Source: Myxococcota bacterium (GTDB taxonomy: Bacteria; Myxococcota_A; Polyangia; Polyangiales; Sandaracinaceae). Taken from it: 64,000 nucleotides of DNA. Below, one piece after another: positions 48,906 through 54,702 of the stretch. The DNA is taken from positions 14,482 to 78,481 of the forward strand of contig JAYZQJ010000084.1 in NCBI GenBank assembly GCA_036149055.1, written 5' to 3'. Position numbers and translations under genes: made by a program. Below the pieces are notes generated by a model, which saw only the letters and a list, made by a program, of their open reading frames with translations, made no database searches and was not told where the DNA came from. Every line of letters begins with the position of its first letter. Position 1 is the first letter of the stretch.

Positions 48906-49367
48906 TTAGCGTGCTGCGTACACGTCGGAGGGTTTCGAGCGGTTCTCGAGACCGGGAAGAGTCATGGAGAGACGCGAGATCGCCGCCGTTCCACTGTCTG
49001 ACGAATACGTGATTCTCTGTAGCTCGGAGCCGTCGGCGTCGTGAGAGGTGATGTTGAGCCGGCCGTCGGGGTCGAACGCGAGTTGCGGCACCGATGCGCC
49101 AGGTCTATCGGTAAATCCAGGCGGCGGCGCAAGTAGCTCCCTCCACTTCGGTTCGGAACACCGAGCGACGGTAGCGTCCGGCTCCATCCAGTTCACGGGG
49201 GGGCGTCGGAACGTGTCCACGGGTAGCGCGTCCCAGAGATTCGCCGATACGACCCACCTAGCCCCATCCCATTCGGCGGTGAAGACCCTGGAGCTGATAG
49301 GGGGCGTGCTCCCATCGGCTTCGTGCCAGCTGGGGACCTCGCACCGGCGTGTTTCGCAGAGTCTCAT
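48906..49367 (-). CDS. Hypothetical protein (153 aa)
   Basis: GGGAGG RBS about 10 nt before ATG 49367; no recognisable motif. Confidence 0.5.
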   Translation of the reverse strand: MRLCETRRCEVPSWHEADGSTPPISSRVFTAEWDGARWVVSANLWDALPVDTFRRPPVNWMEPDATVARCSEPKWRELLAPPPGFTDRPGASVPQLAFDPDGRLNITSHDADGSELQRITYSSDSGTAAISRLSMTLPGLENRSKPSDVYAAR

Positions 49368-49458
49368 CGATGGCGATCCTCCCACCAGAGCGTTGGAAGA
49401 CGTCGAGCCTGCGCAGCGACGCACGGTTCCTTTCGCGACCAGGCAGTCGCATGGGGGT

Positions 49459-52697: not shown

Positions 52698-52701
52698 CGA
52701 C

Positions 52702-54702
52702 CTACCTCTCTGTAACGCACGCGTGAACGTGGAGGCCATCTCGCTCTAGTACTCGCCGCTGGCACATCGAGACTGGGCGCTGTTGCCGCGCTTCAGTGCC
52801 GATCAGCTCGCGTAGGGGGATCGCGAGCGTACCTAGGTCGTCGTTCGAAATGATGTCCCTGTCGACGACGTTGACAAAGATCTGCTCGCGGGTGCTGGCC
52901 GAAACTGCCGCCACCGAGTAGGGGCGACTAAGGACGCACGGGTTCTGGCCCTGCGGGCAGTCTTCTTGAGTCGGGGGCATTCCTGGCCGTACTACGGATA
53001 CGGTGAGGTCGAGGCCGCCTTCGAGGAGTTCCTGTCCGCTTGCTCGTGCGCCGACACTCGTTATTGAGATGTCGAATGTCCGATCTGTTTGGTGACGTAG
53101 GCGGTCCGGAATCCGACGGACCACCAACATCACGGGCGCAGCTCCGCTCGCAGCCGAGACCTGCCTGAGTAGGTCGCCCGACGACGGCAGGTTCTGAGCA
53201 CTGCAGTCGTGGCTGGCGCCCTGGTATCCGCGCGCCCGAACCTGGCAGTTCAGCCGACGGTTCCGGAAGGTCTGCGCAGCTTCGGCCCGGAAGCCATTGT
53301 AACTTCCCTCGACCGCGAGGCGGATGGCCTCCTCCTCGGACTGCATGGCCACGTCCAGCGTGCGACCCAGGACGACGGCGGAGACGTAGAAGCTCGCGTC
53401 CGACGATACGTCCGCGAAGCTGGCGTATTCAGGTAGCGCAACGCGCTCCTCCTCCACCAATGCGGTGAACACGGCGATCGAGGTGCCGCTGGAGTGAGCG
53501 ACGTTGCCGCCGATGCCGAGGAAGCTTGCGCCAACCGCGATCTCCGACTCGAACTGCAGCTCGCGAAACTGGCTGCGAGTCTCGTGATGGTGCGAGTGGA
53601 CGAGCTCTCCCACGGGGGTCACTCGACCACGAGCTGGGCGAAGCTCGCCATCGAACACGCGACCGACGAGCTGCTCGGGGTTCGCGTTCTCGAAGGGGAT
53701 GAGCTCCGCGGCAGCGCCTTCGGTGGTGGTGCCGACGCCCTCCGGCAGGTTCATGGCGGTCCAGCCCGCACGGGGGTCCTCGAGAGGTGGCTCCGCGGGC
53801 GGGGCGGAGGCAAACCTCTGGGGCACTTCGTCAGGTAGCTGAATCGGGCGGGCGCTCAGGGCTTCTCCGATGATGCCGACAGCGTGGGCTCGAACGGGAG
53901 CCGCATCCAGGTCGGCCCAAGCGGGCTCCGACGTGGGCTCTCCCTCCGCCGGGGGCGCCTCGATTCGCTCCTGAAGCTGAGCGACTACGTCGACGGAAGC
54001 CCCGCCTCCCCGAGGTTCGACCAGTATCCGGATCCGGCTGCGCAGCCAGAGTGTGCCGGGCTCCATCGATTCGCGGGTGACTCGCCACTCCGTGACCAAG
54101 CCATGCTCGTCGCTGCTGGCGACCTCGTAGGGGCTGAGGCGCGCGCTGAGCCGTCGGAGAATCTCTGTGGGCTGGCCATCGAAGACGATCTCGGACAGGG
54201 GCGCCGGACGAGTGGACGCGACGGCCTCGCGGAACGACTCGCGGAGCGTGCTGACCAGGTCGTCGTCACGGGATGTCGGCCGCCACTCGCCGGGCGGTTC
54301 GCCCGCTCGCCGCTCTCGTGATTCCGTGGCTACATCGATTGCTACGTCGTCGCCGGACGTAGTCCCAGCAGGCACACGAAGGGTAATCCGCGAGCGCCTC
54401 TGGCGGGCCACGGTCGGACTCGCGTCGACGTCCGAGTAGCAGTGATGCGACACGAGACGACCGGCGGTCGGATCCTCTTCGGCGATCCCACAGCGCTCCG
54501 CTAGGGCTCCCGCGAGGCGGTTCCAGAGATGCGAGCGGGTCATGTCGACGGCAACCCGTAGATCGCCGGAGGCCCGTAAGGCTCTCGTGTGCGAGGCCAT
54601 GGCCCGCGGCATGGTGCGCTGGTACGGCGTCTGGGAGCGGCAGCTACTCGCGGCAAGCGCTGCGATGGAGAAGAGCAGGGAGAGATATCGTGCGCGCGTC
54701 AT
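52702..54702 (-). CDS. Lipoprotein with two BamC-like N-terminal domains, MACPF/CDC-like core and C-terminal C2-like domain (putative)
   Basis: AASSC lipobox; FYVSAVVLGRTLDV resembles the CDC YxSxVxYGR strand; VVDRDIISNDDLG resembles the C2 Ca-binding loop. Confidence 0.65.
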   Translation of the reverse strand: MTRARYLSLLFSIAALAASSCRSQTPYQRTMPRAMASHTRALRASGDLRVAVDMTRSHLWNRLAGALAERCGIAEEDPTAGRLVSHHCYSDVDASPTVARQRRSRITLRVPAGTTSGDDVAIDVATESRERRAGEPPGEWRPTSRDDDLVSTLRESFREAVASTRPAPLSEIVFDGQPTEILRRLSARLSPYEVASSDEHGLVTEWRVTRESMEPGTLWLRSRIRILVEPRGGGASVDVVAQLQERIEAPPAEGEPTSEPAWADLDAAPVRAHAVGIIGEALSARPIQLPDEVPQRFASAPPAEPPLEDPRAGWTAMNLPEGVGTTTEGAAAELIPFENANPEQLVGRVFDGELRPARGRVTPVGELVHSHHHETRSQFRELQFESEIAVGASFLGIGGNVAHSSGTSIAVFTALVEEERVALPEYASFADVSSDASFYVSAVVLGRTLDVAMQSEEEAIRLAVEGSYNGFRAEAAQTFRNRRLNCQVRARGYQGASHDCSAQNLPSSGDLLRQVSAASGAAPVMLVVRRIPDRLRHQTDRTFDISITSVGARASGQELLEGGLDLTVSVVRPGMPPTQEDCPQGQNPCVLSRPYSVAAVSASTREQIFVNVVDRDIISNDDLGTLAIPLRELIGTEARQQRPVSMCQRRVLERDGLHVHACVTER

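Follow-up and report, generated by a model that had tools for sequence, protein, structure and literature searches.

The mcrBC genes and a type I-G CRISPR-Cas locus of a Myxococcota genome (contig JAYZQJ010000084.1) enclose a group of co-oriented genes that a sequence-only reading had described as an undescribed defence operon of four members: a MACPF/CDC-C2 lipoprotein, a protein with an SxxCD motif, an SF1 helicase and a small ORF. The locus thus raises the question of which of these genes belong together, and whether they form a new system. Below, the window is the whole stretch of 64,000 nucleotides that was analysed.

Layout of the locus

Family searches confirmed McrB and McrC on one side of the genes and WYL, Cas3g and Cas8g on the other, as had been proposed. 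The three larger minus-strand ORFs were likewise confirmed, with the spacing described earlier (Table 1): the lipoprotein gene is separated by 4 nt (GTCG) from the gene for the SxxCD protein, which we call gajC in view of the results below, and gajC overlaps the helicase gene by 4 nt (GTGA). The ATG start of the 290-residue ORF has a AGAGGTAGG site upstream. No informative repeats or terminators were found, and promoter matches were at chance level.

The low GC content noted earlier was also borne out. The gajC–helicase pair (49459–52697) has a GC content of 0.585, below all 2,911 of the same-sized windows of the genome, whose overall GC is 0.731. The lipoprotein gene is intermediate at 0.667, and 79 of 4,795 genome windows are equally low. 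One contig of a related strain passes from position 48803 to 54922 through about 118 bases of other sequence; in a same-genus genome, a GmrSD_N gene sits upstream of mcrBC instead, and the WYL-cas3 locus of this genome is without the 41–55 kb part of the window. The pair and the lipoprotein gene occupy a variable slot.

We note that mcrBC (window 44990–48803) is 94% identical to its counterpart in that same-genus genome, compared to 74–84% for the flanking genes, and is found there at a different site; the higher identity and the different site suggest that mcrBC was recently exchanged. The interval from the conserved flank to mcrC (41048–44901), which is missing from the same-genus genome, contains several ORFs with no Pfam match. 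Runs X2, X3 and X5 gave almost no cover across 49242–52411, and missing cover alone was not counted as evidence.

Table 1. Features of the locus, in window coordinates.
Feature	Position	Strand	Basis or remark
mcrB-mcrC (context)	44954..48715	-	Family searches
Variable insertion slot, mcrB to WYL; contains the pair and the lipoprotein gene	48804..54921	.	Comparison with relatives
Doubtful ORF; a TTG start gives 217 aa, the ATG at 49367 (GGGAGG upstream) gives 153 aa	48906..49559	-	Outside the system
Type II GajB-like SF1A (UvrD/Rep-fold) helicase, 789 aa, putative sensor	49459..51828	-	Pfam UvrD-helicase, model, profiles
GajC-like protein (SxxCD protein), 290 aa, putative effector	51825..52697	-	AlphaFold2 model, fold search, hhalign
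Predicted lipoprotein (Cys21), 666 aa, neighbour outside the system; CDC-like core about 340–535, C2-like C-terminus	52702..54702	-	Profile searches
WYL, cas3g, cas8g1 (type I-G; context)	54981..60641	+	Family searches; transcription directed away from the pair

The small ORF and the lipoprotein gene

The fourth gene of the proposed operon was not confirmed. This ORF overlaps the helicase gene by 101 nt, has no family match, and has no convincing homologue among 40 relatives (best E 0.007) or in the loci that carry the partner genes. None of its four start variants occurs in a collection of 15 billion proteins. It is a bystander, and not part of the system formed by the pair.

The description of the lipoprotein as a MACPF/CDC-C2 protein stands in part. 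A search of the PDB with a profile of its core (7 rows) gave CDC chains in 6/7 rows, ranked first, with a best E of 0.012, and the tail matched C2 at E 0.022, which is under the cut-off; both matches are weak, and Pfam gave no match for the CDC/MACPF core. A homologue was found in none of the 84 partner loci (L001–L084), and some myxobacterial genomes that gave no GajC match do carry one: of five related genomes of this kind, four encode a lipoprotein homologue, and these four are 70–96% complete. These results agree with the earlier suggestion that the lipoprotein gene was acquired separately. Three contigs of related strains, all from one study, match the lipoprotein bases 53101–54900 (one of them stops at 54880), the identity being about 97%. 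The match breaks off exactly at 53101, which is codon 534 of the lipoprotein and the end of the CDC-like core, and the contigs continue there with other DNA; the matches listed include no further piece of these contigs. Because these relatives diverge at 53101, recombination within the lipoprotein gene may swap the C2-like tail and the cargo downstream of it. The lipoprotein gene is a separate gene, and a bystander to the pair.

A 79% identical homologue of the lipoprotein, GAB5545230.1, has a more diverged tail. Shorter secreted proteins that share the CDC-like core are encoded in the window genome, G000, at L093 (G000:C80:34683–35249), and in other myxobacterial genomes at L089, L090 and L091. 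They are 368–385 residues long where the ORF was read, have no significant Pfam match, and constitute an unannotated family; at L089 the gene is followed by a patatin gene. By analogy with the CDC-like (CDCL) toxins of Bacteroidota, as presented in the available part of PMC11169675, we would guess at an interbacterial role for the lipoprotein.

Structure of the GajC-like protein

Searches of Pfam, PADLOC, NCBIfam and PDB sequences gave no match for the SxxCD protein, and an Atlas search returned unnamed clusters only. The AlphaFold2 model (pLDDT 95) predicts a MazF/PemK barrel that is split into two parts, at about residues 16–64 and 176–269, by a helical insertion of approximately 110 residues. 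The insertion sits between strands 56–64 and 176–179, and consists of five main helices, at 72–88, 103–115, 122–143, 149–155 and 158–169, plus a short one at 65–69. The top 11 entries from VIA-align are MazF, Kid or CcdB, and the best of them (Z 11.4, rmsd 2.8) aligns 111 residues within the model range 16–269. Foldseek agrees with a MazF-type fold in 37 of the 39 listed rows, none of which is as significant as E 0.001. Family searches found no OLD or TOPRIM match in the window genes, and the controls (L137 and L138) do match.

The SPACD motif reported earlier is present as ISPACD, and residues G21, C47, D48, K53, R200 and R267 are invariant. The catalytic residues of MazF, given as Arg25 and Thr48 in the available part of PMC7354611, are not conserved. 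At the Arg site, Arg is not one of the five most frequent residues in column 38 of the window family, and column 39 has Arg in 24/92 rows; the Thr site (column 63) is V, I, L or M in 92/92 rows and never Thr. The register of all these columns is taken from an alignment with two PemK proteins that is itself weak. Since the MazF Arg and Thr are not conserved, and the published suggestion of nuclease activity for GajC (see below) is based on fold, the window GajC should be regarded as a putative nuclease.

Structure of the helicase

Motifs I, II, III, IV, V and VI are all present in the helicase. The Walker A sequence GAAGTGKT spans residues 284–291, so that the Lys of the GKT previously singled out is Lys290, and VDEAQ spans 515–519; K290, D516 and E517 are invariant across 60 rows. 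The predicted structure (pLDDT 87) is UvrD/Rep-like, matching Rep with Z 26.8 and rmsd 3.8 over 441 aligned residues. Structure prediction, which had been put forward as a check, has given a fold for both proteins. The N-terminal α/β domain (about residues 1–215) is separate and well modelled. It has no match in the Atlas and none in a PDB profile search, and a comparison with a ParE profile of 11 sequences (0.9%) gave no support to the idea that it is RelE/ParE-like.

Occurrence of the pair in bacterial genomes

A search with the SxxCD protein found 102 homologues in addition to the query, at 30–46% identity, and a profile of 92 sequences retrieved 234 representatives with E values of 1e-30 or lower. 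The helicase gene directly follows the SxxCD gene in 23/23 GTDB loci, among which L005 is cut by a contig end and L023 has a split gajC. There are 60 metagenome helicase loci, 12 of which lack the helicase start; the SxxCD gene is upstream of the helicase gene in 45 of the remaining 48 testable loci, some of which are near-duplicates. The conservation of gene neighbourhood proposed as a check of the operon is therefore found, for the pair.

The three exceptions (L077:6001–8334, L078:633–2960 and L079:2321–4639) are helicases with no upstream gajC. They form one branch nested inside the window clade and keep the N-terminal domain, and it is possible that they represent a single-gene system. The L079 helicase adjoins a CAP12/Pycsar TIR-domain gene, and the L077 helicase adjoins a Pepco/Trypco1 and NAL1-like protease pair.

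The cassette has a lower GC content than its flanks in 22/22 loci. It is rare and patchy, occurring in 2 of 401 genomes of its own phylum (the window genome, G000, included), and the window clade is spread over Myxococcota, Acidobacteriota, Planctomycetota, Bacteroidota, Verrucomicrobiota, Gemmatimonadota, Pseudomonadota and others. The conserved unit consists of two genes, gajC-like and helicase, and is a mobile module. When the window-clade genes were used to search E. coli genomes at the DNA level, no match was found, and a tblastn search of plasmids with the window GajC gave none either.

The expected proximity to other defence genes was seen at some of the loci: a recognised defence gene is nearby in 9/23 GTDB loci, and none in the other 14, several of which have short flanks. 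The neighbours are type I RM (L001, L011 and L018), type III RM with GmrSD (L020), BglII (L015), Cas1 (L013), AbiEii with DUF4238 (L003), an AAA and S8 protease of ietAS type (L002), and at L004 an AAA_13 protein, which may be RloC-like. Type I HsdM occurs in 3/23 GTDB loci, compared to 0.04–0.12 expected from five genomes, which is a rough control. In the 19 metagenome loci with flanks (matches at E up to 1e-9), clear restriction genes are present only at L030, and integrases or recombinases at three loci. Separately, a 2,431-residue Tc toxin TcA-like gene adjoins the pair in a Pyrinomonadaceae genome (L006:3877–11172), and a cluster of DUF4238, multiubiquitin, DUF6791, DUF6527 and DUF3644 genes, possibly a ubiquitin-like defence operon, lies upstream of the pair at L003:4176–9594.

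Relationship to type II Gabija

Type II Gabija, or Liu-DS1, is composed of GajC and GajB and was validated in E. coli in 2026 (PMC13069673; preprint 10.64898/2025.12.08.692795). It protects E. coli against 20 of 70 phages with an abortive-infection growth pattern, requires both proteins as well as Walker A residues K252/T253 and the GajC β1–β2 loop, and has a prevalence of over 1.5% in E. coli (PMC13069673). GajC is described there as a split MazF-like protein with a helical insertion; it was tested by loop replacement only, and nuclease activity was suggested from the fold (PMC13069673). In our literature searches, only this paper and its preprint were listed for “GajC” and “split MazF”, and a further preprint (10.64898/2026.05.13.724313) has no mention of MazF, Gabija, UvrD, PemK or SF1.

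A tblastn search with the window helicase found an E. coli plasmid protein (24% identity, E 8e-27), in which the Walker A Lys is residue 252. The corresponding GajC–GajB cassette (WP_001696616.1 and WP_001610298.1) occurs in 113 of 5,426 E. coli genomes, and is on plasmids in all 113. We infer that this pair is Liu-DS1 from Lys252 and the prevalence, rather than from the sequences tested in the paper. The two E. coli copies examined (L096 and L099; for example L099:1759–4813) are flanked by IS elements, and gajC is fragmented in some copies.

Both window proteins are homologous to the E. coli pair. The 262-residue protein of an intact E. coli copy aligns with the window GajC family profile at 95.6% and E 1e-8 (hhalign), rising to 98.2% and E 5e-14 over 272 columns when it is combined with two further plasmid homologues. 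Columns G21, T/S44, C47, D48, K53, P61, R200, R267 and G269 reach 85% identity or more in each of the two clades, as counted over 71 and 8 rows; window residues C47, D48, K53, R200 and R267 correspond to C42, D43, K49, R184 and R245 in E. coli. BLASTP aligns the two helicases over 536 residues at 25% identity (E 4e-39), and cross-profile scores between the two clades are 227–290 bits, where one canonical GajB and 17 UvrD/Rep proteins score no more than 34. A quick tree of 39 rows places both helicase clades on one side, with UvrD/Rep and canonical GajB on the other (SH-aLRT 100); this tree has long branches and only one GajB, and its motif filter dropped L019, L066 and L138. The N-terminal domains of the two helicase clades have no profile match to each other (hhalign 0.2% and 2.5%, with an E. 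coli-clade profile of 9 rows). They are similar in length and position and alike at the start, with different conserved residues.

We conclude with good confidence that the window pair is a distant member of type II Gabija (Liu-DS1-like), in a sister clade to the validated E. coli system. The earlier idea of a helicase and effector defence module within a defence island gains support from this homology. The statement that the combination matches no known system has to be withdrawn: the pair maps to a system that already has a name, an outcome that the sequence-only reading had itself named as refuting it. Of the tools suggested there, PADLOC did not detect the SxxCD protein, and gave the helicase 40 bits on PDLC00132.

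Proposed mechanism and alternative explanations

The fold, the homology, the fixed gene pair and the mobility are established for the window pair. The pair was probably inserted recently into a defence island. In the mechanism that we envisage, the helicase would load onto intermediates of phage replication (ends, ssDNA or forks) and would activate GajC at the expense of ATP, two steps that are equally hypothetical for the E. coli homologue. Activated GajC would then arrest the infected cell, defence being known from the E. coli homologue. For the chemistry, we lean slightly towards RNA cleavage by GajC through a rebuilt site made up of T/S44, C47, D48, K53, R200 and R267, with DNA cleavage or non-catalytic poisoning sharing the remaining probability. 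A bolder and rather doubtful proposal is that GajC is a MazF-fold protein but not a MazF-type RNase, with a rebuilt site in which T-x-x-C-D, K and two Arg have persisted at an identity of about 15%, that the helicase N-terminal modules are exchangeable, and that the branch with no gajC works alone. If true, this would imply that the family is gated by its helicase and distinct from Gabija, with a new effector chemistry and a clade-specific sensor domain.

Membership of type II Gabija has to be weighed against other readings. The window clade could be a distinct variant, in which the chassis of GajC and helicase is the same and the helicase N-terminal domain is another module, sensor or effector, so that trigger or output differ from Liu-DS1. 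The missing profile match between the N-terminal domains, their different conserved residues, and the three nested helicases that keep this domain with no upstream gajC all point this way; but the domains resemble each other in length, position and start, and an E. coli-clade profile of 9 rows is small enough for divergence alone to explain the missed match, and we think this variant unlikely. It is considerably less probable that the pair is not anti-phage in the window clade, and is instead a selfish addiction or DNA-stress module whose helicase restrains a MazF-fold toxin. The fold would suit such a role, as would the many loci that lie amid housekeeping or mobility genes, but the E. coli homologue protects against phage and needs its Walker A, and restriction genes are enriched near the pair. 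An ATPase-dependent antitoxin is moreover a poor fit, because the Walker A mutant of the homologue could be built and tested.

The original proposal of a three- or four-gene system, with the CDC-like lipoprotein as a pore-forming effector triggered by the helicase, is the least credible of these readings, and we give it hardly any weight. It draws on the 4-nt gap, the co-orientation, the CDC-like core and the common insertion slot. Against this, the pair occurs elsewhere without either extra gene: the lipoprotein is absent from the partner loci and present in four genomes with no GajC match, and the related-strain contigs leave the shared sequence at 53101. Its lipoprotein signal would, in addition, be expected to put the protein outside the cytoplasm.

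The preferred reading, a distant type II Gabija, extends this system to a distant clade across many phyla, and removes a false “new four-gene system”. It also makes the function of GajC directly testable, because the invariant residues are now short-listed, where the paper tried loop replacement only. We note that GajC loci are under-annotated, because the copies of PADLOC 2.0, Pfam and NCBIfam that we used do not detect GajC.

Comparison with known systems

Hachiman consists of the SF2 helicase HamB and the DUF1837 protein HamA. It was considered and rejected: the window helicase belongs to SF1A, and no Ham model matched.

The lipoprotein resembles the Bacteroidota CDCL toxins, as far as the available part of PMC11169675 describes them, in its weak match to a CDC-core profile, and differs from them in having an extra N-terminal region and a C2-like tail.

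The GajC-like protein shares its barrel fold with the MazF, PemK, Kid and CcdB toxins (Z 8–11.4), but has the helical insertion of 110 residues, and the equivalents of Arg25 and Thr48 are not conserved. MazEF further differs in that the window has no room for an upstream MazE gene, with 4 nt upstream of gajC and a 4-nt overlap downstream.

Canonical Gabija is also a two-gene module with an SF1A helicase. The partner in the window has a MazF fold, however, and no match to the ATPase-TOPRIM (OLD) nuclease GajA, and the window helicase scores 40 bits on PADLOC PDLC00132, compared to 773–874 for GajA-linked GajB. The window helicase scores 20–34 bits against GajB and up to 29 bits against UvrD/Rep. 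Because it is hardly closer to GajB than to UvrD, “Gabija” is here a label, and descent from canonical GajB is not shown.

Type II Gabija is the closest of these systems. The window clade is a distant sister (about 15% identity for GajC and 25% for the helicase); its Walker A Lys is residue 290 rather than 252, its helicase N-terminal domain has no profile match to that of E. coli, and it is found on contigs of chromosome type in many phyla, in contrast to the exclusively plasmid-borne E. coli copies. The two nevertheless have in common a split MazF-like protein with a helical insertion, a UvrD-like helicase with an extra domain and an intact Walker A, homology of both proteins with the shared G, T/S, C, D, K, P, R, R and G columns, and a two-gene arrangement in which gajC precedes gajB and there is no GajA.
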